DNA of 64,000 nt from a virus (IMGVR_UViG_3300038345_000076:1-64000), one strand, 5' to 3'. Shown: positions 3,273-37,786, counted from the first letter of the stretch. Notes: generated by a model not told the origin, from the letters alone. Numbers and translations: made by a program.

Positions 3273-3747
3273 TTTCTTTCTTGTTTAAGTGTTCCATAAC
3301 TTTGTTTACTATCTCACCAATAACGTCAGAGTTTTCTTCCTTCGTCCATTCTATTGCGACTTGATAGGTTAGGTTGTATTCAGGGCGTAGCTCCATAGCA
3401 GAAACTTCGTGATGCGCAAGTTTGCCCTCAGTAGGCTTCAGACCATTCTCATGCAATTCACACTTTCCATCGTGGTAACAGATACAGCAACCGTCAACTT
3501 TACTGCCAGTGCTCTTCAACTGAACCATCGGAATAGGCTGTCTCGTATGTCCTAATGCCATCCCTGCAGCCCACTCAGTATAGCAAACTTTGTCTATGTA
3601 ACCTGCTTCGATCAGAGCAAGAATATCATGCGGAGTACCCAAGCATGGAGTACGTTGGCACATCTGCTTGCACTTCTCGCAGTTGCAGGATATAGGCTGT
3701 TTGCCAACCTGCTTTGCTATGCGGTTGAAAACTTCTTTCCTTGTCAT
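3265..3747 (-). CDS. Cys-rich YkgJ-like metal-cluster protein
   Basis: CNCEKCKQMC...C...CCIC...GKCELH...KPTEG. Confidence 0.55.
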   Translation of the reverse strand: MTRKEVFNRIAKQVGKQPISCNCEKCKQMCQRTPCLGTPHDILALIEAGYIDKVCYTEWAAGMALGHTRQPIPMVQLKSTGSKVDGCCICYHDGKCELHENGLKPTEGKLAHHEVSAMELRPEYNLTYQVAIEWTKEENSDVIGEIVNKVMEHLNKKENE

Positions 3748-3750
3748 ATT

Positions 3751-3936
3751 CTATCCAAGCCTTAAATCAGATGGATTTGTTGCTTTGGAATTTACGTCGC
3801 TACCGTATCTTACGAAAGCATATCTATCATTCACGCTGGTAATCACACCATATTCGTGAAGTTTAGAATCACAGCCCTCAAAAGGTATATAGGTAACATT
3901 CCTACCAACATTTTCTTTACATTCTTGTATTGTCAT
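3751..3936 (-). CDS. Small hypothetical protein
   Basis: 61-aa ORF in operon. Confidence 0.55.
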   Translation of the reverse strand: MTIQECKENVGRNVTYIPFEGCDSKLHEYGVITSVNDRYAFVRYGSDVNSKATNPSDLRLG

Positions 3937-4145
3937 AATTGTACGAAATTAAATGGTGTCTATGAGATTGGTTACTCATACGAGACTGTTTTTGCTGTGA
4001 GACAAGTACAAATTTGCTCCTGTAGCCGCCCATTGCAGTAGTTGCAGACCTACATCATACGATGCACTTCATAGTTATCTACGCCTTTTATCCTCAGTGG
4101 GCTGTTCATGCTTGCGTCTTATTCCGCCAAGACACCATTATTATT

Positions 4146-6260
4146 TTAGAATTGAACTTTGATGATACGCTTATGAGAGCCTTGCAGACGCAGCACAACC
4201 TCGTCGCGGACGGTGGCATTGAATCCAAGACCAGAGAGTTGTCCGTCTGTTGACTCAACCTTCAGTGTTGCACCAAGAACTTCCATCACCTTACGGTGCT
4301 CAAGAAGTTCGGGAATCAGAAACTCGTTGTGGAAACCACGAATAGCCTCTGGTGCCTTTGCACCGTCGAGCATGAAGAAGTAGTGCTTGTTACCTACACA
4401 GCCATCCCAATGATTCGGTGAAAGGCAGACCAAGTTCACTTTGTGGAACATATTGGTTTCAAGTCCGTAGATTTCCGCAGATGTTGCATTGCTGTCAACC
4501 AGATACTTCGACTGGTCAACATGGTCGATCATGCCATTCTTGATGTGAACGGTGGCAATGTCAACATTACGCATGATCTCATGGTCAACAACGTATGTGA
4601 ACACTTCGTCGCCGAAAGCAATTTCAGCCTTTGCGCCACTGTTATGCTTACTGTTGAAGTTCACGATGAAGAAGCGGTACTTACCATCTTTGATACGCTC
4701 TGGTTCATCCCAGAAGATGTTTTCAACACCGACATTGACAGGATCAATCATATCAACATCAAGCATACCACCGCAAACAGGAGTCTTGTAACCTTTGTAA
4801 GAACCATAATATATCTCAGTACCAGTCGGCTCTATTGCGTGAGCATCGAGGTCAACGATTGAACGTCCGTCCTCGTTCCACATGATAGAGAAACGGAAAG
4901 GTGCATTGACAAACCCACCTGCTGCTTTCACAGCTTCCTTAATCTCTGATTTACCAGCCAGATTGCCGTTGTAAGTCCAGCCAAAGTTGTTGCCCCATTT
5001 GAAGATAGGCTTGCTGTCCTTGTTGACGGGAGTTGTCAGAGTGACAAAGTTGTTTTTGTGAGAGTTCAGGAGGAACACCTCCACCGATGTGCAACCAGGC
5101 AGGATATCCTTCATAAACTTGTCAATGGTGACAACCTCTACACCATCAAACTCGCTACGCTTGTGACGTGTAGAAGTCGGCTTGATACCATCCAAAACTG
5201 ATACTGGCTTGATGTTGCCATCACCTACGTTGGCATGGAGAATGTCAGATACCTTGATGTCTTCCATCGTAGCGCAGCGACGGTTGAAAGAATCCTCGTA
5301 GCCGTTTTCAGCGAGGAAAGCCTTTGCGTTGTCAATCATTTGCTGAGTAATAGGTGCAGTGGCTTTCATGTAGTTTGCAGGATCGACACGCTTGTTCCAG
5401 TCCAGGCAGGCGGCATTAAGTTCTTTGCCCTCTGACAACTCTACGCAAAGAGTACCAATAAGCTCGTTCCTGAAACGTGCAAGATTGTACTTGTACGACT
5501 TAACCCAGCACCAGTTATCCTTCTCTGCTGCTGAAAGAGAGTTGTATTGTCTGGAGAGATTCAGGAACTCCACAACCTTATATTTATGAGTGTCGCCATT
5601 CAGCAGAGAACCTTGGTCTATCAGGTCGATAACCAGTTGCAGGGTGTCTGCTGGAATCTCGTCGAGCGCACGTTTAAACACGTTCTTGTCTTCACGCAAA
5701 CGAGCCTGAATAGCATCGACCGTATCATTTCCGAAGTGAATAAACTCACGCGGAACACTTACGCAGAAGTGGACAAAAGTACGGGTCTCGTTAGGTTTGA
5801 CAACACCGAACTTCTCTGCCTCTTCCTTCGTGTAGCGTTTCACGGTGTGGTCGAGATTGAGAGCATACATCGAATCATTCTTGCTACAGCGGGCATACAC
5901 CGCATTATAGAGATAGTCGAAAGTCTCTACAAAGACATTCTCAACAGGTGCAGCAATAAGCAGATTTCTCATGTTGGCGAAAGACTGACGGTATTCGTCA
6001 TTGACTTCACCGTCAAACATCGTCATAATAGTGTTGTCTTCTGCAATGGCTACGATGTTGCCGTAACGGTGGAAGAAGTGCTTACACTGGTTACAGTTAT
6101 GCACCGATGATTCAGGGTCACGGAAGATGGGGTCTTCACCGAAACCTCTCATGTAGGCTTCCCAGAGTTGGTCGCCTGTAACTTTACTACGGAAGAGTTT
6201 GCCAGTGGCACACATCTTCAAAAACTGCTCTTGCAGCATCTTTGATTCTAATTGTTCCAT
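4146..6260 (-). CDS. Large phage protein with YfaP/DUF2135-like C-terminal region
   Basis: 704 aa; DLDAHAIEP...GMLDVD...VENIFW motif. Confidence 0.65.
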   Translation of the reverse strand: MEQLESKMLQEQFLKMCATGKLFRSKVTGDQLWEAYMRGFGEDPIFRDPESSVHNCNQCKHFFHRYGNIVAIAEDNTIMTMFDGEVNDEYRQSFANMRNLLIAAPVENVFVETFDYLYNAVYARCSKNDSMYALNLDHTVKRYTKEEAEKFGVVKPNETRTFVHFCVSVPREFIHFGNDTVDAIQARLREDKNVFKRALDEIPADTLQLVIDLIDQGSLLNGDTHKYKVVEFLNLSRQYNSLSAAEKDNWCWVKSYKYNLARFRNELIGTLCVELSEGKELNAACLDWNKRVDPANYMKATAPITQQMIDNAKAFLAENGYEDSFNRRCATMEDIKVSDILHANVGDGNIKPVSVLDGIKPTSTRHKRSEFDGVEVVTIDKFMKDILPGCTSVEVFLLNSHKNNFVTLTTPVNKDSKPIFKWGNNFGWTYNGNLAGKSEIKEAVKAAGGFVNAPFRFSIMWNEDGRSIVDLDAHAIEPTGTEIYYGSYKGYKTPVCGGMLDVDMIDPVNVGVENIFWDEPERIKDGKYRFFIVNFNSKHNSGAKAEIAFGDEVFTYVVDHEIMRNVDIATVHIKNGMIDHVDQSKYLVDSNATSAEIYGLETNMFHKVNLVCLSPNHWDGCVGNKHYFFMLDGAKAPEAIRGFHNEFLIPELLEHRKVMEVLGATLKVESTDGQLSGLGFNATVRDEVVLRLQGSHKRIIKVQF

Positions 6261-7070: not shown

Positions 7071-7598
7071 TAATCAATATTTTTTACATTTAACACTTCT
7101 GTGTTCGCTTTTGGAGGTTTTGATTTTTATACATATCTTTGCAGCGCAATCGTCGGGGAGCGATGCGATCCAGATATGAGTATCAAGGCTTCGGCACATG
7201 ATATTAGAGACCCTGCAAAAGACTTCCCGCTTTTGCGGGGTTTCGCTTTTATAGCGTTGGTGATTTTTGTTCCATCAGTTGCCACAAATAAGCCGCAAAA
7301 TCCGACAAAAAGCACCTTTTTGAGTAACAGAACGCTAATCCTGCTCTGTCGCGCCCTGACAACAGGTCACACCGAAGCCCTCACAAGGGTCAATATAAAG
7401 CGAAAGGTTAAGACTGTAATTGGAGAACCCTATCTGTTGCTTGGGTCTGAATCCGATATAAAGGACAATGACACAAACCTCCCCTACAACCCCTGTTTCG
7501 GAGGTAAAGGGCGAACTATAAACATAATGATTATGAAAAAGAATATGAGTGGTGTCGAATGGTATAGATTTGTTTGTAACCAAAGCCGATGTTAGCGT

Positions 7599-7850
7599 AT
7601 GAAATGCCACTACGAGAATATAAAAGGTGTAGGCAAAGTGCTGATACCGGGCTGCATGGCTGTTGCAGTATCTCAGGACATCCAAGATTGCACCTGCCAT
7701 CCTACAACGATACGACAGTTTGAAACTTCCAAGTACAAAGAACACGTTGAGGAACTGAAGAAGCGGATTCGTGAACTTGAAGATGAAAACGACTTCTATG
7801 CAAAGGTTCTGGCAGACAACGAGATTAAGAATCCATATAGGAAAGGGTAG
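7599..7850 (+). CDS. Hypothetical protein
   Basis: 83 aa, followed by a hairpin. Confidence 0.6.
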   Translation: MKCHYENIKGVGKVLIPGCMAVAVSQDIQDCTCHPTTIRQFETSKYKEHVEELKKRIRELEDENDFYAKVLADNEIKNPYRKG

Positions 7851-7869
7851 GATTTGGTTCCTACCCTTT
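7841..7869. terminator. Hairpin between convergent genes
   Basis: AAAGGGTAGGA-ttggt-TCCTACCCTTT-type inverted repeat. Confidence 0.6.
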
Positions 7870-7872
7870 GTC

Positions 7873-9045
7873 TTATCTGATGTGCTTCTTTATCTCTTCG
7901 GCAATCGTATCATCGAGTAATCGCGCATACGCCTGTTCCGTCTGCCTGATGCTCGAATGACCGAGAATCCTGCTAACGACACTGATAGGTACGCCTGCAT
8001 TAAGAAGTATATAGGCACACGAGCGACGGCCATCGTGACTTGTCATTTGCTTGTCAATCCCCGCTGCATCTGCTACAAGTTTCAGTTTGACGTTGTACTT
8101 TTGGTTTGGTAGTTTCGGGAGGTGGTACTCATATTTCTCCAAAATTGCCTTTGCCTTTGGTGTAAGGACGAAAGTGAACAGTACTCCAGTCTTTGAACGG
8201 TAGCCGCTGAATACAGAATAGTTATTGGCGTTAGTACACTGAGTGAAGTCGTAAGCCATAAGGTCAACGTATGACAGCCCCGTGAACACTTGGATCAGAA
8301 ACAAATCTCTTGCCTCAGACAGACTTTTTGTGGGCATTCCAGCATTTTCAATCTTCTCAATCTCTTTTTTTGTGAGAAACTTGTCTATCCTGGTGCTGCC
8401 TTTGTCGATCTTGATACGCTTGGTAGAGTAGGGGTTATCCTTAACATACCCGTCAACCATGGCATCGTTGATAAATACTTTGAGGTTCTTGTGCATTGAT
8501 CCGATGCTTGCCTGAGAATACTTTCGTGTTACCTTCTTTCCAAAGCGGTCTTTTTCTTCCCATGTGACAGTATGCAGGTATTCGTCCCATTTTCTGATGT
8601 TTGATTCAGTAATGTCTCTGAAGTATTGCATCTTTCCCCATTCCGTAAAACGGGATAAGAACACATGATAGGCTTTCTTGGTATAGTCAGACACCTGTTT
8701 TGCCTTCATTCTCTTGTGGATATAGTCTTCAAACGTGATATCCGTGTCTTTCTGCTTAATAAGTGATGGTATTGCGTTGAGGTCAATGTTCTCTGCATCT
8801 ACCATTTCTCCGATGATTTTAAGCGCACGTTTTCTTATCTTCATAAGCATGGCATTGTCTTCCTGTGAGCTGAGTGACTTGATGCTTTCGTGTGCATCGT
8901 ACCACTCTCCAGGAAAGCACTTAACGCCAGTAGTGATGAACTTCTGCTTACGGTTGAAAGTAATGCGCAGTTCAATGACACCCTTTTTTATATTGGATGC
9001 CAGGTGCTTGCGGTCAAATACAAATTTTATCTGAGGTATAATCAT
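7873..9045 (-). CDS. int: Phage integrase (Bacteroidetes-type tyrosine recombinase with arm-binding domain)
   Basis: N-terminal IELRITFNRKQKFITTG arm domain; FTGLSYVDL, HDGRR, LGHSS and catalytic Tyr (QAYA). Confidence 0.93.
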   Translation of the reverse strand: MIIPQIKFVFDRKHLASNIKKGVIELRITFNRKQKFITTGVKCFPGEWYDAHESIKSLSSQEDNAMLMKIRKRALKIIGEMVDAENIDLNAIPSLIKQKDTDITFEDYIHKRMKAKQVSDYTKKAYHVFLSRFTEWGKMQYFRDITESNIRKWDEYLHTVTWEEKDRFGKKVTRKYSQASIGSMHKNLKVFINDAMVDGYVKDNPYSTKRIKIDKGSTRIDKFLTKKEIEKIENAGMPTKSLSEARDLFLIQVFTGLSYVDLMAYDFTQCTNANNYSVFSGYRSKTGVLFTFVLTPKAKAILEKYEYHLPKLPNQKYNVKLKLVADAAGIDKQMTSHDGRRSCAYILLNAGVPISVVSRILGHSSIRQTEQAYARLLDDTIAEEIKKHIR

Positions 9046-17158: not shown

Positions 17159-18550
17159 ATGGCAGACAGAACCCCTTTGCACGATGATCAAGCCGAGGTT
17201 TACGTTGTAGGATCTTTGCTGTGCTATGAGGAATGTTATTTTTCTGTTGCAGACAGGTTAAAACCGTATCTGTTTTCAAACGCCAAACTTGCGAGGTTGG
17301 TGGAAGTTATTATAGCCTTGTATAATGAAGGTTCTAATGCGAACATTGTCACAGTTACAGAATATCTTTATGCGCATCCAGATCCAAACAATCCAGAAGT
17401 ATGGGAAGTTGCAGAATACTCGTCTAATGCTATTTTATCTGCTTTTGAGGACAGTTTCAATGTAGTAGAATCGCTTTATATTCGCCGTCGTTATTTTTCT
17501 CTTGGGTCAAAGTTGATGGAGTTTGGTACGAATCCGACAACGACATTAGAGGAAGTACAAAGGGAGATAACTGGTGTATTGGAAGAAGGTGCCGAGAAAA
17601 AGAAACGAGTAAAATCCCTGCGTGATGCAAACAAGGAACTGAAGGAGCGTGTCGAGAAGAACTACAATGGCACATCTGACACGATGATACCTACAGGTTT
17701 TAAGGAGATAGATGAAAGGGGCGGTTTGCAGGTTGGCGACTTCGATGTTTTTGCTGCAGAATCATCAATGGGTAAGACCTCACTGCTTACCTGCATCATG
17801 GTCAATGCCGCAAGTGTCGGTATTCCCTGTATGCTGTACTCGATGGAAATGATGTCACCACAACTTGCGGCGAGAATCGTTTCCCCGAAAGCAAAAATCA
17901 GTTCAGGTATTATTCAGTACAAACGTCTTGATGACTGGCAAATGAATGAATTGTCACAGGCATTGAAACTGACAGATGGTTTGCCAATCTATTTTGACGA
18001 TGAATCTACCATATCAGCAGACAGTATCATCAGCAGTATCAGGCGTAACGTGAAACGTCTTGGTGTGAAACTTGTAGGAATAGACTATTTGCAGATCCTT
18101 GCTTCAACAGGGAACATTAAAAACCAAGAGCAGTTCCTTGGCTCAATAGCCAGGAAACTGAAAAACCTTGCCAAAGAGTTGCAGATATGTATTGTTGCTC
18201 TGTCACAACTTGCCCGTAATATCACAGAACCGAAGCCGACACTTGGACGTGTAAGGGCATCTGGGCAGATTGTAGAGGCTGCTGACGATGTTTTTATGGT
18301 ATGGAGGCCGTCTGTGTACGGGAAAGGTTATGACGATTACATTTCTGTTCCAACCGAAAACACAGCAGAACTTATAATTGGTAAAGGTAGAAATATCGGC
18401 ACATTTACCTGTATCGTTGGATTCGACATGTCAACGACCTATTTCTACAATTACGAAGGAGAAGTCAGGAAGGCTGGTGAGATACATATAGAGAGTAAAA
18501 AGAATAACAAACAAGAACAGGAACCAGAACAAGGTGAATTGCCGTTCTGA
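17159..18550 (+). CDS. dnaB: Replicative DNA helicase (DnaB family)
   Basis: AAESSMGKTS, YSMEM, IDYLQI, ALSQLAR, ASGQIVEAAD, KGRN. Confidence 0.93.
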   Translation: MADRTPLHDDQAEVYVVGSLLCYEECYFSVADRLKPYLFSNAKLARLVEVIIALYNEGSNANIVTVTEYLYAHPDPNNPEVWEVAEYSSNAILSAFEDSFNVVESLYIRRRYFSLGSKLMEFGTNPTTTLEEVQREITGVLEEGAEKKKRVKSLRDANKELKERVEKNYNGTSDTMIPTGFKEIDERGGLQVGDFDVFAAESSMGKTSLLTCIMVNAASVGIPCMLYSMEMMSPQLAARIVSPKAKISSGIIQYKRLDDWQMNELSQALKLTDGLPIYFDDESTISADSIISSIRRNVKRLGVKLVGIDYLQILASTGNIKNQEQFLGSIARKLKNLAKELQICIVALSQLARNITEPKPTLGRVRASGQIVEAADDVFMVWRPSVYGKGYDDYISVPTENTAELIIGKGRNIGTFTCIVGFDMSTTYFYNYEGEVRKAGEIHIESKKNNKQEQEPEQGELPF

Positions 18551-18576: not shown

Positions 18577-19593
18577 ATGGAAGTCAACAGAGTATATAAT
18601 GAAGACTGCCTTACTGGATTGAAGAAACTTCCAGACAACTGCATTGACTGCTGCGTGACATCGCCACCATATTACGCCCTGCGTGACTATGGCATGGATG
18701 AGCAAATAGGACTGGAGGAAACACCACAAGCGTACATCGACAGACTGACGGACGTGTTCATGAATGTGTACCGAGTGCTGAAACCTACGGGCACCTGCTG
18801 GCTCAACATTGGCGACAGTTACAATGGCAACAAGAAAGGCAACACCGAGACCAACAAGAACAAGCGAGTAGCCGAGAGCAACCATTTCGAGAAAAAGCTA
18901 TGGGACGGCGCAAAGCAAAAGGACTTAATCGGTATTCCCTGGATGTTGGCTTTCACGCTGCGAGCAAAAGGCTGGTATCTGCGACAGGACATCATTTGGC
19001 ACAAGCCTAACGCAATGCCAGAAAGCGTTACTGACAGGCTGACAAAGAGCCATGAGTATATTTTCCTTATGAGCAAAAGCAGCAAGTATTACTTCGACCA
19101 TGAGGCAATACAAGAAGTCGCCACGGGGTATGATGGAAGAAAAGACACCATGATGCACGGCTCTCCTAAGTATAACATTATTCCTGTAATGCCGCATGGA
19201 AAGCGTCAAGATCTTACAAAGAACGAGCATCAGCGGTGGCGTTTCAAGAACCTACAAGAAGATGGTCAGCAGCCAAACACCATGCACCTTCGCCGTGCTG
19301 AAGGACTTCCTGATAAGCAATACCCTATCAGGAACAAACGAGACGTGTGGTCTGTGAATACCAAACCAGACCATAACGCCCATTTCGCTGTCTATCCTGA
19401 AGAATTGATAAGACCTTGCATCCTTGCAGGTTGTCCGAAAGACGGTATCGTTCTTGATCCGTTCATGGGTAGTGGTACGACGGCGAGAGTAGCACGGCAA
19501 TATGGCAGGAACTTTATCGGCTACGAATTGAATCCAGAATACATCAAAATTATAGAGCGTAAAATTGTCGTTGAACAGGATATGTTTATCTGA
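18577..19593 (+). CDS. Beta-class amino-MTase (SPPY; N4-cytosine-like), currently ON
   Basis: CVTSPPYY near the N-terminus, LDPFMGSGTT near the C-terminus. Confidence 0.92.
   Translation: MEVNRVYNEDCLTGLKKLPDNCIDCCVTSPPYYALRDYGMDEQIGLEETPQAYIDRLTDVFMNVYRVLKPTGTCWLNIGDSYNGNKKGNTETNKNKRVAESNHFEKKLWDGAKQKDLIGIPWMLAFTLRAKGWYLRQDIIWHKPNAMPESVTDRLTKSHEYIFLMSKSSKYYFDHEAIQEVATGYDGRKDTMMHGSPKYNIIPVMPHGKRQDLTKNEHQRWRFKNLQEDGQQPNTMHLRRAEGLPDKQYPIRNKRDVWSVNTKPDHNAHFAVYPEELIRPCILAGCPKDGIVLDPFMGSGTTARVARQYGRNFIGYELNPEYIKIIERKIVVEQDMFI
19175..19192 (-). repeat. Recombination site A2 (intragenic)
   Basis: ACATTA-TTCCTG-TAATGC; shares CATTACAGGAATAA (14 bp) inverted with A1. Confidence 0.8.
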
Positions 19594-19594
19594 C

Positions 19595-19612
19595 ACATTA
19601 TCTTTGTAATGT
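19595..19612 (-). repeat. Recombination site B1
   Basis: ACATTA-TCTTTG-TAATGT. Confidence 0.88.
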
Positions 19613-19844
19613 CGCCCCAATTCTTTTCTGCACTATCAGGATGCAGCACTTTGTGGGCGATTACGGCAGGTTGCTTGTTGATGTCTGGGTTCGCATCTTC
19701 TTCTGGATCGAACTCAGCCCAACCTACCAACTCGTAATCGAAATCTGGATAAATCTCCCGTAACCTGTTGAGAGCCAATGCCTGTGAGCCATATCCGGCA
19801 CAAATCTCAAATAGCCTAAGTTTATTATTTCTATTGTACTTCAT
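19599..19844 (-). CDS. Inverted N-terminal 82 codons of a cytosine-C5 DNA methyltransferase (motifs I-III)
   Basis: LRLFEICAGYGSQ (motif I), ELVGWAEFD (II), NWGDITKI (III); antisense to the operon. Confidence 0.9.
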
Positions 19845-19849
19845 AAGTC

Positions 19850-19867
19850 ACATTACAAAGATAAAGT
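19850..19867 (+). repeat. Recombination site B2
   Basis: agtcACATTA-CAAAGA-TAAAGT; 15-bp perfect inverted repeat (ACATTACAAAGATAA) with B1. Confidence 0.88.
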
Positions 19868-20415
19868 GGCAGGATTTACCCGACTTTGACCTTCTGAGTT
19901 ATTCCACGCCTTGCCAGAGTATCAGCCAGGCAGGGTTGCAACATGGCTTTACTGAAGGCAGCGGTACGAGGTCGAGCATCATCTGGAATGTGCGAGACTG
20001 CGTAAAGGCTAAAAGACCAAAGTTTCTGATGTTAGAGAACGTGAAGGCAATGGTCAGCAGCAAGTATGTCGGATTGTTCAATGTCTGGCAGCGAGAATTG
20101 GAGAAGTTAGGATATGCCAATTTCGGTCAAGTGCTAAATGCTAAAGATTTTGGTGTTCCTCAGAATAGAGAGCGCATTTTTCTTATTAGCATAAGGATAG
20201 ACGATACAGAGCCGAAGTATTTCTTTCCAGAGCCGAGACCTCTGGAGGTGTGCCTCGCAGATGTCCTTGAAGAAGAGGTTGACGAGAAGTATTTCCTCAG
20301 TGACGAAATGCTTGCAAGGTTCTGTGAGAAGAGTCTGGAAGAAGAGAATGAAACTGTACCAGAATCGCAGGAAGATGGCGAAACCGACTTTGAAGACTTC
20401 TTTGTTGCTCAGTGA
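19852..20415 (+). CDS. Cytosine-C5 MTase catalytic part (motifs IV-VIII); lacks its start in this orientation
   Basis: YSTPCQSIS (IV), LMLENV (VI), GVPQNRERIF (VIII). Confidence 0.9.
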   Translation: MTKIKWQDLPDFDLLSYSTPCQSISQAGLQHGFTEGSGTRSSIIWNVRDCVKAKRPKFLMLENVKAMVSSKYVGLFNVWQRELEKLGYANFGQVLNAKDFGVPQNRERIFLISIRIDDTEPKYFFPEPRPLEVCLADVLEEEVDEKYFLSDEMLARFCEKSLEEENETVPESQEDGETDFEDFFVAQ

Positions 20416-20544
20416 CGATGTGATTGTGGCAGGACGTATCAGTTCGTCTCAAGACGGGATAGTTGTTATGGGGGGGGTATTTCCCCATGCCATACAGCAG
20501 GACACGGAAACTGCCCGAAAATTGTGGTCATTATCGAGAATTAA
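20348..20544 (+). CDS. TRD mini-gene M1 (frameshifted at G8; start uncertain)
   Basis: ...DDVIVAGRISSSQDGIVVM-(G tract)-GISPCHTAGHGNCPKIVVIIEN*. Confidence 0.6.
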
Positions 20545-20677
20545 GCCGCAGAATGTTTGTCAAGGTGGAGTTGCCTGTACTCTTAATACAAGATATGAAA
20601 ATGCGGCGATCAAAGACTATATCAGTTTGAGACACTATCCCCAAACTTGCGTGATGTATGTTTTTGAAACATTGTAA
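20522..20677 (+). CDS. TRD mini-gene M2
   Basis: ...RIKPQNVCQGGVACTLNTRYE...CVMYVFETL*. Confidence 0.6.
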   Translation: MWSLSRIKPQNVCQGGVACTLNTRYENAAIKDYISLRHYPQTCVMYVFETL

Positions 20678-20833
20678 ATTACCCCCCCCAATCGTCTTAT
20701 TGGACTTCCAACCACAGCAGATGGGATAGCACCGACGATTACAGCAGTCTATGAGACTACGGGGCCTGCAAATATGATAAGTGTAGCCCATTATCCGAAA
20801 ATGGGTATCGGAGTAATCTATGAAACAGAGTAA
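20664..20833 (+). CDS. TRD mini-gene M3 (frameshifted at C8)
   Basis: TTG-KHCKL-(C tract)-NRLIGLPTTADGIAPTITAVYE...GIGVIYETE*. Confidence 0.6.
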
Positions 20834-21011
20834 ACTAACTGGTGGCAAGCGATTCCAGAAATGGATTGAGAAAGGCGACCTTCCAAATGGGGGGGGGTAT
20901 TTTATCGACATTTACAATCAGATGTATAACAAGCAGGGAATCGCAGGTACTATACATACAAGAATCAACGATGGAAACTATTGGTGGGTCACACAGGTTG
21001 TTGAGACGTAA
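20820..21011 (+). CDS. TRD mini-gene M4 (G9, in frame)
   Basis: ...KQGIAGTIHTRI...WVTQVVET*. Confidence 0.65.
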   Translation: MKQSKLTGGKRFQKWIEKGDLPNGGGYFIDIYNQMYNKQGIAGTIHTRINDGNYWWVTQVVET

Positions 21012-21165
21012 TTTTGCCCCCCCCAGAATTTTACCATTGAATCCGATGCCAGACGGCACTTGCAGGACATTGAAAGCAGTTTACTATAAAACAGGCAGAA
21101 TCAATTTCCAATATCACAATGATTGGGGAACTACTGGAGTAGCAGTTGTGTATGAGACAGATTAG
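21001..21165 (+). CDS. TRD mini-gene M5 (C8, in frame)
   Basis: ...LNPMPDGTCRTLKAVYYK...GVAVVYETD*. Confidence 0.65.
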   Translation: MRRNFAPPRILPLNPMPDGTCRTLKAVYYKTGRINFQYHNDWGTTGVAVVYETD

Positions 21166-21307
21166 GAATATCTATTACGGGTGGTCGAGAAATGCCAAAG
21201 GTGAGATTGACAACTGGTACAAATGCGATATATCAAACTCTATCACAACTTTTGTCGGTGGTGGATGGAACACTTCACCCAAAGTAGCTGTAGTCTATGA
21301 AACGTAG
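21152..21307 (+). CDS. TRD mini-gene M6
   Basis: MRQIRNIYYGWSR...DISNSITTFVGGGWNTSPKVAVVYET*. Confidence 0.65.
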   Translation: MRQIRNIYYGWSRNAKGEIDNWYKCDISNSITTFVGGGWNTSPKVAVVYET

Positions 21308-21461
21308 GGACAAGGTGATACAGTGTGGCTATTTGTTCTTTACAGATAGCAATTCACAGGCATGGAGGGTATATGACAAGTACGGGATTTCACCAACACT
21401 TGATTGCTGTAGCGGTGGAAACAGACAGCCAAAGATCTTGGTTGCTTATGAGACGGAGTGA
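21297..21461 (+). CDS. TRD mini-gene M7
   Basis: MKRRDKVIQCG...RVYDKYGISPTLDCCSGGNRQPKILVAYETE*. Confidence 0.75.
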   Translation: MKRRDKVIQCGYLFFTDSNSQAWRVYDKYGISPTLDCCSGGNRQPKILVAYETE

Positions 21462-21603
21462 TAAGATTATTATTGTTGGAAATGTGTGGAATAGTAGGCA
21501 AAACGGCAGCGTATTGGACGTAAGAGGCATTTCGCACTGCATTACCATTGGTCAGCATTCAGGTACAGAACCTAAGATTAGAGTAGTCTATGAAAACGAT
21601 TAA
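21448..21603 (+). CDS. TRD mini-gene M8
   Basis: MRRSDKIIIVGN...VLDVRGISHCITIGQHSGTEPKIRVVYEND*. Confidence 0.7.
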   Translation: MRRSDKIIIVGNVWNSRQNGSVLDVRGISHCITIGQHSGTEPKIRVVYEND

Positions 21604-21754
21604 GGCTATTGGTTGTGCAATCCGAGGCCGTTCAAAAGGAGAATGGCATAATAGTGAACACAGGCAGATGCTTGAAATGAACTCAGACCGCTTCAGCAAT
21701 GCAGTCAGTACAGTTCAAAAGGATTTTATGGTAGCTATGCTTTATGAAACATGA
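21590..21754 (+). CDS. TRD mini-gene M9
   Basis: MKTIKAIGCAIRGR...QMLEMNSDRFSNAVSTVQKDFMVAMLYET*. Confidence 0.7.
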   Translation: MKTIKAIGCAIRGRSKGEWHNSEHRQMLEMNSDRFSNAVSTVQKDFMVAMLYET

Positions 21755-21890
21755 TTATATTGTTTTAGCTCTTGGAAATTGGAGCGATTGGCAGGATGAT
21801 AGAGTATTTGACACCGAAGGTATCAGCATTACCTTAGACACTAACTGTAGTAAGAGACCATTACTAAGGATTATAAATGAAACTGATTGA
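21744..21890 (+). CDS. TRD mini-gene M10
   Basis: MKHDYIVLALGNW...DRVFDTEGISITLDTNCSKRPLLRIINETD*. Confidence 0.7.
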   Translation: MKHDYIVLALGNWSDWQDDRVFDTEGISITLDTNCSKRPLLRIINETD

Positions 21891-22071
21891 TGTGCGACGT
21901 ATATCTCGTACAAGAACGGCAGAAGAGAGATTGAGGCGGCATTTGTACGGAGAGACGGGTGCAACCTTTTCAAAGGGCAAGTACATGACTTTGGGCGGTC
22001 ATGTGATGGGTACAATAACTACATTCATCAATAAGGATAATCTTGTTGCGGAAATTTATGATACTATCTGA
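21877..22071 (+). CDS. TRD mini-gene M11
   Basis: ...RTRTAEER...VMGTITTFINKDNLVAEIYDTI*. Confidence 0.65.
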   Translation: MKLIDVRRISRTRTAEERLRRHLYGETGATFSKGKYMTLGGHVMGTITTFINKDNLVAEIYDTI

Positions 22072-22201
22072 TGCTAAGAACGGAGCAAAACGGATGCGTG
22101 ATCACAAGATGGTATTTGAATGTGGTAATGAAAGTTTTTGCAATGCGCTGACACAAAATATAGATCATAGTTTAATAGTTTTACTATATGAAACAGAATA
22201 G
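22058..22201 (+). CDS. TRD mini-gene M12
   Basis: MILSDAKNG...SFCNALTQNIDHSLIVLLYETE*. Confidence 0.6.
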   Translation: MILSDAKNGAKRMRDHKMVFECGNESFCNALTQNIDHSLIVLLYETE

Positions 22202-22730
22202 AGTTTTTCACAGACAAGTTCGTGTTGTTTACAGGGCTTGCAGAAGACTTTACGGGAAAGAACGGACGCAGGATGAATGCCTAAAGTTATTTAAGATAAT
22301 CTTTCCTGAGTATTACAAAGCCAAAAATTCTAATGAGAAATACAAACAACTATCGGATGAATCTTATAATAAGTTGAATGCTTTGCTTTCAACGTGGATT
22401 CCAGAAGATGGTGCTTTGCATGATGTGATATGCTATACTCTCAATGAAGCAGATAGATGTATGTTACGTGAAGAGTTCTTGCAATTCTGTGAGGACATCA
22501 TGCCAGTTGTGATGCGTATAAGGAAACTTACACCGAGGGAGTGCTTTCGCTTGATGGGCGTTTCAGAGCCAGACATTGACAAGATGCTGAACAGCGGGAT
22601 ATCGAACAGTGCTTGCTATCGGCTTGCAGGCAATTCAATAGTAGTCGATGTAATGGTAGCTTTGTTTGATAAATTATTAGTCAATACGGAGGAAGAAAGA
22701 AAATTTGGAACTCAATTAACCCTTTTTTGA
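22188..22730 (+). CDS. Cytosine-C5 MTase C-terminal subunit (motifs IX-X)
   Basis: RIRKLTPRECFRLMG (IX), YRLAGNSIVVDV (X). Confidence 0.88.
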   Translation: MKQNRVFHRQVRVVYRACRRLYGKERTQDECLKLFKIIFPEYYKAKNSNEKYKQLSDESYNKLNALLSTWIPEDGALHDVICYTLNEADRCMLREEFLQFCEDIMPVVMRIRKLTPRECFRLMGVSEPDIDKMLNSGISNSACYRLAGNSIVVDVMVALFDKLLVNTEEERKFGTQLTLF

Positions 22731-22731
22731 T

Positions 22732-23298
22732 ATGGAAGAAGAATGGAAAGCCGTAAAAGGTTACGAGGGTAAATATGAAGTATCTTCTACAGGACTTGTC
22801 CGCTCTATAGGGAATTATTATCCGATTCGTGGTGGTGGGCAACAGTTTAGGGATGGTAAGATATTAGCGCAGCGTATGATGTCTAATGGCTATGTTAGCG
22901 TATGCCTCAGTAGAAATCATAAAACGAAAACAAAATATGTTCATCGTTTAGTCGCAGAAGCATTTGTGGCGAATCCTTTTCAATATGGAGAGGTAAACCA
23001 TAAAGACGAGGATAAAACTAACAATAGTAAGGAGAATTTGGAATGGTGCAGTCATTTATATAATATAAACTACGGAAATTGTCGTGCGAAAATAAGTTCA
23101 TCAAGACGTAAAAGTCCACTAATAGGGGAAAAAGTATCTCAATACACATTAGACGGAAAATATATAAAGACATATAAATGTGCGCAAGATGCCGGAAGAG
23201 AAACTGGGTGTGACCCATCGGCAATAAGGAAATGCTGTAATAGAAAAAAGAAATTTAATACTGTTCATGGTTTTATTTGGAAAAATGCGGATATGTAG
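22732..23298 (+). CDS. NUMOD4-HNH-NUMOD1 homing endonuclease
   Basis: EEWKAVKGYEGKYEVS, VHRLVAEAF, VNHKDEDKTNN..NLEWC. Confidence 0.9.
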   Translation: MEEEWKAVKGYEGKYEVSSTGLVRSIGNYYPIRGGGQQFRDGKILAQRMMSNGYVSVCLSRNHKTKTKYVHRLVAEAFVANPFQYGEVNHKDEDKTNNSKENLEWCSHLYNINYGNCRAKISSSRRKSPLIGEKVSQYTLDGKYIKTYKCAQDAGRETGCDPSAIRKCCNRKKKFNTVHGFIWKNADM

Positions 23299-29285: not shown

Positions 29286-29398
29286 GTGCAAGTATTGTGG
29301 TCGCATTGTACCTCAGAAGTGCGCTCACAACTGCAATACAGGATTTCGGAAACGACATCTGGAATGGGTTGAGATTGAAGATGAAGAAAAGTAATAGT

Positions 29399-29914
29399 AT
29401 GAAAGAGGTTTGGAAAGACGTTGAAGGTTACGAAGGTCTTTATCAAGTGAGTAACCTTGGACGGGTAAAAAGCCTACCCAAAATGATTGGAAGAGGTGTT
29501 CAGTATCATGTTGGCGAGCGCATAATTACGCCTCACAAAGCCCCTAATGGGTATCTGCGTTTACATCTTGACAAAAACGGTAAAAGAGCATTCTTTTCAG
29601 TTCATAGGCTTGTTGCGAAAGCCTTTGTAGCGAATCCTCACAACTATCCTCATGTAAACCATAAGAATGAGGTGAAGAATGACAATGTTGCTTCTAATCT
29701 TGAATGGTGTACCCCAAAATATAATTCCAATTACGGAACAAGAAAATCAAGAATATCTCAAAGTAAAATGGGGCATATCGTTTCAGAGGTAACAAAAGCT
29801 AAACTGAGAGAAGCAAACTTAGGCTCAAATAGTCCATCTTTTGGAAAGAAGAGAACCGATGAAACGAGAATGAAAATCAGTAAAGCATTGAAGCGTTTTT
29901 ATTCAGAAAAGTAG
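29399..29914 (+). CDS. NUMOD4-HNH-NUMOD3 homing endonuclease
   Basis: EVWKDVEGYEGLYQVSNLGRVKS, VNHKNEVKNDN, GKKRTDETRMKIS. Confidence 0.9.
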   Translation: MKEVWKDVEGYEGLYQVSNLGRVKSLPKMIGRGVQYHVGERIITPHKAPNGYLRLHLDKNGKRAFFSVHRLVAKAFVANPHNYPHVNHKNEVKNDNVASNLEWCTPKYNSNYGTRKSRISQSKMGHIVSEVTKAKLREANLGSNSPSFGKKRTDETRMKISKALKRFYSEK

Positions 29915-35551: not shown

Positions 35552-35590
35552 GCAGGGAGTGGCGATCGGGCTGCTCCCTGCGTTTTTTTT
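35552..35590 (+). terminator. Intrinsic terminator ending the rightward operon
   Basis: GCAGGGAGTGGC-loop-GCTGCTCCCTGC followed by T8. Confidence 0.75.
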
Positions 35591-36428
35591 AGTGGTTGAA
35601 GAAATCCCTTGCATCATCACCAATGTTGTTGATGTCAACACAGACGTAGTGCTTGCTCGTAGTCTGGGAATTTGTGTGTCCTGCGAGTTTGGCAATGATC
35701 TCAACGGGTACACCACGGACTGCAAGGGCTGTGACGTAAGAGCGACGGCTGCTGTGCATGGTAATCCATTGATATTTGGGCTTGGTCTGCATACGCCCGT
35801 TACAGAAGAGTGTTATTTCCTCCGTAAATCCGAGTTTCTTGCAGATGCGCTGGATGGTACGGTTGACTACGCTTCGGTCAACTTCTTTTGTCGGATTCAT
35901 CTTTAGGTACTTTACAAGTCGTGCGTGAAGCGGTTGCTCAACGGCTACTTTCGTTTTCTTGCTGACGTATGAAAGCGTTTCGCCATGTACGTTGTCTGTT
36001 GACATGGTTCGGCAGTCGCTTGAACGTGCGCCGGAGAAAGCACCACGCATGAAAAGAATCTTGACATTCATTTCTGTCTCGCTCTTCGGCTTGTATTCGT
36101 CGAATAGGATAAGTTCTTCTTCCGTCAGGCAGCAGTGCTGAGACGGAATGACCTTTACCTTCAGAGCCTTGGCATAACGCATGGTTGGCAGTTCAACTTC
36201 TTCGCATACGTTGTTAAGGAATGCCTTGATGATGGAGCAATAGACCTGTGCAGAGTTCTGTGCGAGACGTTGGAGCATCAATTCCCGTACTTTGTTGAGG
36301 TTGCTCAGTGTGAGGTCTTTCCACTGGACTTCCTTTACTCCGATGGCTTCACGCATGAATCGGAGAATCTGGATTCTGCCCGGATTGCTCCGTTCAAATT
36401 CCTGTTCAAATGATAAAACTTTGTTCAT
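35589..36428 (-). CDS. Tyrosine recombinase without arm-binding domain (invertase/Xer-like candidate)
   Basis: Likely start MNKVLSF (279 aa); SGARSSD (R), KKT (K), HSSRR, LAGH, KHY. Confidence 0.88.
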   Translation of the reverse strand: MNKVLSFEQEFERSNPGRIQILRFMREAIGVKEVQWKDLTLSNLNKVRELMLQRLAQNSAQVYCSIIKAFLNNVCEEVELPTMRYAKALKVKVIPSQHCCLTEEELILFDEYKPKSETEMNVKILFMRGAFSGARSSDCRTMSTDNVHGETLSYVSKKTKVAVEQPLHARLVKYLKMNPTKEVDRSVVNRTIQRICKKLGFTEEITLFCNGRMQTKPKYQWITMHSSRRSYVTALAVRGVPVEIIAKLAGHTNSQTTSKHYVCVDINNIGDDARDFFNH

Positions 36429-36586
36429 ATTGACTTTTAATTTAACTTGTTCGTAAATAGTGAGCGCACTGCCATGTTGCTGACTGTGCGCCTGTCTAAC
36501 CAAAAAATAATTAATTATGATTACTATATTATAGCAATATACGGGACAAAGGCGGTTATCTGTATCTATAGATAGTCGCCTTTGTG

Positions 36587-37786
36587 TCAAGATACCCTGT
36601 ATGGAAATATGCAGAGGTCAGAAAAACCACTAAAGAATTTTCTAACGTCGTCTGTTGCGGGCTGTTGTTCTGCCTGTATTCTCAAAATTTTCTGACGGCA
36701 GTCAGCATGAATGCTGCCGATGTCGTTGCACTGTCTTATCACCTCCTGAGTGCTGACATAAGCGCATTGAACGCGGGTTATCTCTGCACCAGAGAAGTAA
36801 AGCATATCGCCACAGCCTGTAAGTTTCTCGGCACCTATCTGGTCTATGACCACACGGCTGTCCGTTCCCGTCGTGGTGCGGAATGCAATACGTGTCGGGA
36901 AGTTTGCCTTGATGTTACCCGTAACGATGGTTGCAGACGGTCGCTGGGTGGAGATTACGAGGTGCATCCCAACGGCACGGGCTTTCTGTGCGAGTCGGCA
37001 GATGTAATATTCGATATTCCGTCCGTACTGGCGATCCATTACAAGGTCGCCGTACTCGTCGATGACAATGACGTAATACTCCATCGTCTTTTCGCTTACA
37101 TCGTTGTACTCCTTGATGTTTCTTGCGCCAACCTCGTTGAGCATGGTGTAACGCTTTTCCATGAGGCGACAAAGCGCATCGAGCATGGTCTGAGCATGAG
37201 CCGCCTCAGTTATGATTGGTGGCATACCAAGCATCTGCGTGATGTATGGTCGTGCTATCGAGGTGTATGCTGACAGTTCGACTTTCTTTGGGTCGATTAG
37301 CACTAACTTCAACTCTTCTGGTGTCTTCTTATGCAAGAGCGACATGAGCATAACGTTAAGTCCAACAGACTTTCCTTGCCCTGTAGCACCTGCAACGAGA
37401 AGATGCGGCATTTCGGCAAGGTCGGCCATGAAGATTTCATTAGTCACGGTGCGTCCGATGGCTAACGGAAGAGCCATATCAGATGTAAGATATTCCTGGG
37501 ATTCAAGAATATCTGAGAGTGGCACGATTTCACGCTGTTTGTTCGGAATCTCGATTCCTACGCAACCATCGTACATCGGTGCAATGATGCGGACGGACGG
37601 GACGCGGAGAGCGGCAGCGATTTCGTTCTTGATGCCCGTGATGCGAGAGATACGCATGCCGAGCATTGGACGGAACTTGTAGAGCGTGACGTTTGTACCA
37701 CGCAGTTCCTCGAAGTCGTAGGTCTGTATCTTGTAGGACAGCAGTACGGACTTGAGGAAGTCGGATTGTGATTGTTGTTCGTTCAT
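36587..37786 (-). CDS. ftsK: FtsK/SpoIIIE-like DNA translocase motor (no membrane domain, no evident gamma domain)
   Basis: SVRIIAP..GCVGIEIPN (alpha domain), MPHLLVAGATGQGKS, VIVIDEYGDL, RLAQKARAVGMHL, GAEKLTGCGDMLY. Confidence 0.92.
   Translation of the reverse strand: MNEQQSQSDFLKSVLLSYKIQTYDFEELRGTNVTLYKFRPMLGMRISRITGIKNEIAAALRVPSVRIIAPMYDGCVGIEIPNKQREIVPLSDILESQEYLTSDMALPLAIGRTVTNEIFMADLAEMPHLLVAGATGQGKSVGLNVMLMSLLHKKTPEELKLVLIDPKKVELSAYTSIARPYITQMLGMPPIITEAAHAQTMLDALCRLMEKRYTMLNEVGARNIKEYNDVSEKTMEYYVIVIDEYGDLVMDRQYGRNIEYYICRLAQKARAVGMHLVISTQRPSATIVTGNIKANFPTRIAFRTTTGTDSRVVIDQIGAEKLTGCGDMLYFSGAEITRVQCAYVSTQEVIRQCNDIGSIHADCRQKILRIQAEQQPATDDVRKFFSGFSDLCIFPYRVS

Follow-up and report, generated by a model that had tools for sequence, protein, structure and literature searches.

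We analysed a 64,000-nucleotide stretch of viral DNA (hereafter the window), which represents the first 64 kb of the 105,850 bp IMG/VR record IMGVR_UViG_3300038345_000076 and carries near 20 kb a locus for a cytosine-C5 DNA methyltransferase (C5 MTase). The catalytic motifs of this enzyme are distributed over two genes, designated here N-subunit and C-subunit, and a row of very short overlapping open reading frames (ORFs) is located between them. A prediction made earlier from the sequence of the window alone (the original prediction) had read these ORFs as free-standing target-recognition domains (TRDs) of a split multispecific enzyme.

ORF listing and stop-to-stop translation yielded twelve mini-ORFs of 42-64 codons (M1 to M12) on the plus strand at 20375-22201, between the N-part and the ORF with motifs IX and X. 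Every module possesses a TL-like core and ends in a hydrophobic strand followed by (Y/F/I/V/N)(E/D)(T/N) and a stop codon, TAA, TAG and TGA all being in use (Table 1). The reading frames run from 0 in the N-part through 1, (0), 1, 1, 2, 0, 1, 2, 0, 1, 2, 0 and 1 in the array to 2 in the C-part. From M4 to the C-subunit there are nine junctions, each with a strict +1 step, and the next start codon (ATG, or TTG in M5) is placed 8-14 nucleotides (nt) before the preceding stop, embedded in the TAT-GAA of the preceding tail. The offset is uniform because the start is the ATG inside TAT-GAA. The motif TATGARAC has eleven matches on both strands of the 64 kb, seven of them on the plus strand at 20750-22194, where about 0.06 would be expected. 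The twelve overlapping mini-genes, with their cores and strand-forming tails, were hence recovered as originally predicted. The +1 step, which had been claimed for all junctions, applies to the nine from M4 onward; at the beginning of the array M1 and M3 are shifted by homopolymer tracts and M2 is startless.

Table 1. Features of the C5 MTase locus and of its neighbourhood (positions in the window; aa, amino acids; pN and pS, proportions of nonsynonymous and synonymous differences)
Feature	Position	Strand	C-terminal tail	Remarks
N-subunit, codons 1 to ~77, motif I (LFEICAGYGSQ ... GDITKI)	19613..19844	-		Translation; in frame in relative L001 at 3967-4776
N-subunit, motifs IV-VIII (PCQ, ENV, QNRERIF) and post-VIII helix region	19865..20415	+		PF00145, E 5e-40, profile positions 48-215
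Invertible segment with 5' end of N-subunit gene	19590..19872	OFF orientation as sequenced		23-nt inverted repeats
M1 (SPCHT)	20375..20544	+	VVIIEN	Start common to M2; frameshifted at G8 20470-20477, in frame with G9
M2 (ACTLNT)	20545..20677	+	YVFETL	With G8, read from ATG 20375 (or 20348)
M3 (APTITA)	20658..20833	+	VIYETE	ATG 20658; C8 20682-20689 throws body (20678-20833) out of frame
M4 (AGTIHT), 63 aa	20820..21011	+	QVVET	In frame through G9 20889-20897
M5 (CRTLKA)	21001..21165	+	VVYETD	TTG start; in frame through C8 21017-21024
M6 (SNSITT), 51 aa	21152..21307	+	VVYET	Only ~40% identity to module at same position in relatives
M7 (SPTLDC), 54 aa	21297..21461	+	VAYETE	TRD homology to single-chain MTases
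M8 (SHCITI), 51 aa	21448..21603	+	VVYEND	Module type used for profile search and complex model
M9 (SNAVST), 54 aa	21590..21754	+	MLYET	Orthologues in L006, L016, L018; pN 0.11 vs pS 0.61
M10 (SITLDT), 48 aa	21744..21890	+	IINETD	Matches tandem TRDs of P0202, P0187, P0188, rho11s
M11 (MGTITT), 64 aa	21877..22071	+	IYDTI	In every array seen; pN 0.14-0.16 vs pS 0.46-0.77
M12 (CNALTQ), 47 aa	22058..22201	+	LLYETE	Orthologues in L010, L016
C-subunit, 180 aa	22188..22730	+		PF00145, E 3e-7, profile positions 257-322
DnaB-type helicase	17159-18550			Replication-gene neighbourhood of the locus
N6/N4 methylase	18577-19593			Directly before the locus
HNH/NUMOD endonuclease gene	22732-23298			After the locus

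All catalytic motifs of a C5 MTase are present, namely motif I (LFEICAGYG) in an inverted segment and motifs IV (STPCQ), VI (MLENV) and VIII (QNRERIF) on the plus strand. The catalytic ORF of the original prediction holds as to motifs IV-VIII and its end coordinate, but is incomplete as sequenced, since motif I lies on the minus strand. The N-subunit terminates with DFEDFFVAQ and a stop, and sequence comparison places this end point exactly at the start of the TRD series in the enzyme of the Bacillus phage rho11s. The segment with the 5' end of the gene is bounded by 23-nt inverted repeats (19590-19612 and 19850-19872, core ACATTACAAAGATAA), which occur in the window in these two copies only. 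The ON orientation was found in contigs of two other runs, X2 and X4, where 19598-19864 and the sequence from 19865 onward are on opposite strands, with 2 differences in 267 nt from the segment of the window; furthermore, relatives L001, L005 and L007 have an intact ON N-subunit of 269-274 aa. As the segment with motif I is inverted, the enzyme is OFF in the window as sequenced. A tyrosine recombinase (PF00589) adjoining an FtsK/SpoIIIE-type ATPase (PF01580, FtsK_alpha) is encoded at 35589-37786 on the minus strand, and this pair is a candidate for driving the inversions. A second integrase, with an arm-binding domain, is located at 7873-9045. It should be added that in relatives L018 and L019 the neighbouring N6/N4 methylase gene is divided between the strands (3411-4055 on the minus and 4074-4478 on the plus strand), apparently a gene caught in inverted state, which suggests a second intragenic inversion switch.

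The C-subunit begins with a helical region that is conserved (aa 1-45) and continues with a variable part (46-98), after which come the strand MPVVMRI, motif IX (RKLTPRE, within RIRKLTPRE) and motif X (GNSIVV, within AGNSIVVD). According to the alignment and to an AlphaFold2 (AF2) model, its N-terminal 105 aa are helical and the conserved part resumes at the strand before motif IX. Its best GenBank phage matches by tblastn were rho11s and H2, and this search returned no cultured phage with at least 80% coverage. Residues 1-45 (22188-22330) are almost invariant among relatives and contain VRVVYRA, which resembles the module tails VVYET. In relative L016 the C-subunit gene (7499-8053) has an in-frame TGA at the codon of the conserved Trp70, perhaps a nonsense variant or else a difference due to sequencing, with the remainder intact.

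The assignment of the modules to TRDs is supported by homology. M7 and the TRD adjoining motif IX in the single-chain PF00145 protein P0001, which also has an upstream TRD ending in ILVFEE, are 59% identical over 32 aa; M7 further matched the repeated TRDs of P0202, P0180, P0187, P0188 and rho11s/H2. A profile of the M8 type, built from nine modules and searched against 1.84 billion representatives (E ≤0.001), retrieved 93 proteins, about 80 of which are 33-120 aa long. The long matches are PF00145 enzymes of 419-659 aa with four to five matched stretches in tandem, and one match of 205 aa is a C-subunit with two TRDs fused on. Altogether, M7, M8 and M10 match repeated TRDs of single-chain multispecific enzymes, including those of the Bacillus phages rho11s and H2, where a TRD ends with EPKIAVEY and the next one follows directly; the modules originally proposed as C5 TRDs are in this respect homologous to those of multispecific MTases. 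A PDB sequence search with M8 gave a chance match only (E 1.2), a word-based search of longer proteins with M9, a weak method for establishing absence, found nothing, and look-alikes of M11 and M9 in the ESM Atlas scored ≤0.82 or were missing.

A three-chain complex was then modelled from the N-subunit, the C-subunit and, as the scored partner, an M8-type module (alignments of 40, 10 and 9 rows, respectively), which is the multimer model suggested by the original prediction, run for M8. The interaction prediction score from aligned errors (ipSAE) was 0.87 in three runs, against 0.00 for the best of three controls; 58 of 80 solved complexes attain the mark used, compared with 2 of 110 mismatched pairs, and these counts hold only roughly for this model. 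At least 73% of the contacts were common to the runs, and the predicted local distance difference test (pLDDT) score of the partner was at least 78. In the model, module residues 44-47 (IKVV) pair antiparallel with residues 107-111 of the C-subunit (VVMRI), i.e. with the strand before motif IX, as foreseen in the proposal that docking proceeds through the shared C-terminal strand. Residues 24-29 of the module, just before the TL-like core, are placed on N-subunit residues 188-190 (motif VIII, QNR) and 221-223, and further contacts are made by residues 12, 15, 25, 28 and 32 of the C-subunit, all within its strongly conserved N-terminal part, predicted as helical when the chain is modelled singly. 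Docking through the tail strand would explain why the tails and the N-terminus of the C-subunit are conserved, and why module cores and the middle of the C-subunit are variable. The model supports, rather than shows, binding of the module between the two subunits.

Searches of viral, metagenome and genome collections with both subunits identified relatives L001, L004-L010 and L016-L019, the C-subunits of which are 56-94% identical to that of the window. L017 comes from an NCBI metagenome-assembled genome of Prevotella sp., in which five mini-genes are annotated. Wherever the region is covered, the arrangement of the window recurs, and at least ten contigs of rumen or gut phages keep it: the N-subunit has about 270 aa, the mini-ORFs that follow it end in Y-E-T-x-stop, and the C-subunit has about 180 aa, with a stop after each module as in the window. 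None of the close relatives encodes the modules as one continuous ORF, the finding that the original prediction had named as contrary to it, and a fused full-length form was absent among the best 120 N-subunit clusters (62-100% identity, 185-312 aa), proteins of up to 480 aa having been searched. The comparison of module number, order and selection, likewise proposed at the outset, revealed arrays of about 8 to about 17 modules with a partly kept order (ACTLNT, APTITA, AGTIHT, CRTLKA ... MGTITT), in which modules have also been inserted, lost, replaced and, at least once, reordered.

Orthologous modules have pN of 0.05-0.2 and pS of 0.5-0.85, with the reverse relation in the overlapping off-frames. 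Such low pN/pS values in the module frames imply that these frames have long been read as protein with the stops in place. This applies also to modules that are defective in the window: M2, with orthologues in L001, L005, L007-L009 and L016-L018, shows pN of 0.09-0.21 vs pS of 0.28-0.87, and M3, the body of which is in the frame of M2, pN of 0.07-0.12 vs pS of 0.35-0.63. The start codons are under selection as well. At 71 junctions from 11 loci the residue before Glu was encoded as Tyr by TAT 57 times and by TAC once, as His by CAT four times (no alternative codon) and as Asn by AAT twice (likewise), whereas the background ratio of TAT to TAC in the long ORFs of the window is 213:209. A bias shared by three residues points to selection on the ATG in the +1 frame rather than on the amino acid. 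Among 84 junctions, ATG serves as the start in 76 and the overlap is 14 nt in 63.

A more distant lineage (L012-L015, IMGVR 3300045988 contigs), about 40% identical in motifs IX-X, shares the split. Its mini-ORFs (for example, L012 2339-4161) have the tails LI(I/V)K(E/K)x, such as LIIKKL and LIVKEI, they overlap by TAATG or ATGA with mixed frame offsets, and the last TRD is fused to the C-subunit. Judging from these sequences, the trait conserved across lineages is that of separate, coupled mini-genes. Decay, against which the original prediction had cited the identical frame offsets, is contradicted by the comparative data; the uniform offset itself is a by-product of the ATG in TAT-GAA.

The window has four G/C runs of seven or more nucleotides in its 64 kb, and all of them are within 20470-21024 (G8 at 20470, C8 at 20682, G9 at 20889 and C8 at 21017), in M1, M3, M4 and M5, respectively. 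For comparison we used contigs, not raw reads, of near-identical strains from other runs (X2, X4 and X8). The tract at 20470 is G8 in the window, G9 in X4 and G10 in X2, and that at 20889 is G9 in the window, G10 in X4 and G8 in X8. The former makes a choice between two modules: G9 leads to M1, and G8 lets reading continue from the shared start into M2. In M3, C9 would restore the frame, as it does in L005, and M4 is out of frame at its tract in L005, L008 and L009. Tracts of relatives are 7-9 nt long, the in-frame or out-of-frame state matches the length, and the same module differs in state between relatives; in the distant lineage, a G7 tract of L012 (3203) breaks one module that is unbroken in L013. 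Whole cassettes vary too. In X8 the M1 cassette (123 nt) is precisely absent, 20413 being joined to 20537, and in X2 and X4 M10 is replaced by a diverged cassette of equal length. The G/C tracts were also considered as shufflon inversion sites, since they form imperfect inverted repeats, but the flipped sequence makes no sensible coding, and among contigs of four runs no opposite-strand joint was found at these tracts, the sole such joint being 19598/19865. A change of tract length therefore fits better than shufflon inversion.

Taken together, we consider that the locus encodes a three-part phage C5 MTase with free-standing TRD mini-subunits, a reading to which we assign a probability of about two in three. 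The N-subunit (motifs I-VIII) and the C-subunit (helical adaptor, strand before motif IX, motifs IX-X) would constitute a catalytic core without a TRD of its own, and each of the twelve mini-genes would provide one free-standing TRD of about 45-65 aa. The mini-genes would be translated in succession by coupling, from starts 8-14 nt upstream of the preceding stop in the Tyr-Glu codons. One TRD peptide at a time may dock between the subunits, with its tail strand (PKIxVVYE) antiparallel to VVMRI and the loop before the TL-like core against motif VIII of the N-subunit, whereby the small domain of the canonical enzyme would be rebuilt. A pool of such peptides could confer many methylation specificities on one core, and would presumably protect phage DNA from the restriction systems of varied hosts. 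Homopolymer tracts would switch single modules, cassettes would be gained, lost and reordered at the stereotyped junctions, and DNA inversion would turn the N-subunit gene on and off. We infer translation of the peptides, their assembly in trans, one specificity per module and the role against restriction; the number of twelve specificities is an upper bound.

Several points weigh against this interpretation. The peptides are predicted gene products, M2 has no start codon of its own, and the N-subunit gene is disrupted as sequenced, so that no enzyme would arise from this copy unless the segment is inverted. The homology is uneven: M3, M4 and M6 match known TRDs weakly; for M2, M9, M11 and M12, which matched no full-length enzyme significantly, the assignment draws on TRD-like motifs, on position and on conservation, and a Pfam search with ten modules (E up to 10) detected no relevant family. 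As to the complex, one module type (M8) was modelled, and the model used shallow alignments of its own and three chains, unlike the calibration; its passing of the mark may in part be memory of solved single-chain enzymes of the same fold. The C-subunit modelled alone with AF2 was of low confidence (pLDDT 64).

Among the alternatives, the one that survives best is that the array acts as a store of cassettes, in which one or a few modules are functional at once and the others are recombination donors at the conserved junctions. The differing sets and orders of modules among relatives, the cassettes missing or replaced in near-identical strains and the modules that are out of frame or startless would all suit such a store. 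We nevertheless regard it as unlikely, because purifying selection acts on every orthologous module tested in its own frame, start codons are kept at nearly all junctions, and the genome has no separate full-length gene as an acceptor. It is compatible with TRDs acting in trans and differs mainly in the number of active modules.

Recoding, i.e. a +1 shift of ribosomes at each Y-E-T-x-stop junction producing one long multispecific chain like that of SPR or rho11s, would account for the uniform +1 offset of this lineage and for the conserved TATGARAC, and single-chain relatives with tandem TRDs do exist. It is, however, hardly probable. The codon before the stop varies with no conserved slippery pattern, all three stop codons are used, and it is the ATG itself that is under selection across Tyr, His and Asn codons. 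Moreover, the distant lineage has classical TAATG/ATGA overlaps with mixed offsets, M1/M2 start 40 nt inside the N-subunit gene, and hardly any complete chain would remain after twelve successive shifts. A reassignment of stop codons is ruled out, as TAA, TAG and TGA all terminate modules.

An equally slim chance is left to the view that the peptides are no methylase parts, being instead small proteins that bind DNA or enzymes and serve to inhibit restriction enzymes of the host or to control the methylase. Small size, high number and variability are traits that they share with many anti-defence genes, and their link to the methylase core is a predicted one. Against this stand their homology to TRDs, their invariable location at the TRD position, between two subunits otherwise devoid of a TRD, and the docking of the module at the canonical TRD position in the model. 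Finally, decay of a multispecific methylase gene, or an error of assembly or sequencing, as might be suspected from error-prone homopolymer tracts, two modules out of frame and a disrupted N-part, is excluded for practical purposes by the comparative sequence data, i.e. the same stops and frames in contigs of at least 12 independent samples or studies with synonymous divergence near saturation, pN much below pS, and selected start codons.

To our knowledge, the specificity of C5 MTases has always been found in the catalytic chain, or at most in two halves, and a literature search found no description of free-standing C5 TRD genes. The closest known enzymes are the multispecific C5 MTases of Bacillus phages SPR, phi3T, rho11s and H2, which have several TRDs in one chain (Wilke et al. 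1988, EMBO J, PMC457134, as cited in PMC8936443). As in the locus described here, they are phage-encoded with a row of TRDs between motifs VIII and IX, the TRD end EPKIAVEY of rho11s/H2 equals the tail of the mini-proteins, and M7 and M10 match their TRDs. In contrast to the present array, these enzymes have two to four TRDs in a single chain of 440-500 aa, whereas here 8 to about 17 are encoded by separate overlapping genes and the catalytic core itself is split in two.

Split C5 MTases are also on record: the break of M.AquI falls between motifs VIII and IX, within the variable region, M.EcoHK31I has motif IX as its sole separate part, and fragments of C5 MTases are able to reassemble by complementation (PMC3404938). 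Both enzymes resemble the one proposed here in consisting of more than one polypeptide, and M.AquI does so in particular with its alpha (I-VIII) and beta (IX-X) subunits from adjacent genes. The subunits of M.AquI, however, hold the halves of a single variable region, while here the TRDs are ORFs of their own, and both M.AquI and M.EcoHK31I are devoid of TRDs in the form of independent peptides and of any set of alternative ones.

In its logic the system resembles HsdS of Type I systems, a separate recognition subunit whose alternatives are switched by repeats or recombination in phase-variable and shuffling hsdS loci (PMC7394358, PMC3510504). A separate and switchable specificity subunit, with genes translationally coupled to that of the methylase, is common to both. 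There is no relationship in sequence or fold; HsdS serves N6-adenine methylases, it comprises two TRDs in one protein of 400 aa, and its switching proceeds by inversion between hsdS copies. Coding G/C homopolymer tracts that set the frame and vary in length between close strains are shared with phase-variable DNA methyltransferases with simple-sequence repeats, i.e. phasevarions (PMC11868660, PMC3936762). Those are bacterial and switch a whole enzyme on or off, whereas the tracts here are in single modules of a phage enzyme, so that the set of specificities would vary rather than the presence of the enzyme.

The locus is surrounded by replication genes, and near-identical DNA is contained in bovine gut metagenomes of several studies. 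In RNA runs, 5-13% of sampled words of the stretch were present. There is no second C5 MTase gene in this genome, and blastn of the locus against GenBank phages gave a single match of 53 nt, in the neighbouring HNH gene. HNH/NUMOD homing-endonuclease-like genes abut methylase genes in two places, the one next to the C-subunit starting 2 nt past its stop and the other being at 29297-29914; in relative L016 such a gene (3890-4504) lies between the N6 methylase and the C5 N-subunit.

At the level of the family, we think it rather probable that phages of about 100 kb from the rumen and gut, with probable Prevotella hosts, possess a modular C5 holoenzyme composed of a split core and of exchangeable mini-subunits, 8 to about 17 in number and about 50 aa long, with one specificity each. 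The modules would be individually phase-variable through homopolymer tracts, the cassettes shuffled at the 14-nt start/stop overlap and the core gated by inversion, and this would be the first case of a C5 enzyme whose specificity subunits are free-standing, in analogy to HsdS. Most of the mini-ORFs escape gene callers, and the family is consequently hidden in existing metagenomes; public data hold at least 120 N-subunit clusters and about 80 mini-protein clusters. If the interpretation is true, free-standing TRDs of 50 aa on a common core represent a new way to build a C5 MTase. With modules this tiny and self-contained, the recognition code of 5-methylcytosine formation could be read module by module, and a natural scaffold for programmable cytosine methylation would be on offer. 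For the phages themselves, it would mean a repertoire of methylation patterns that a population can combine, inherit and reverse, and a broad, switchable protection against restriction in which each specificity takes up about 150 bp.

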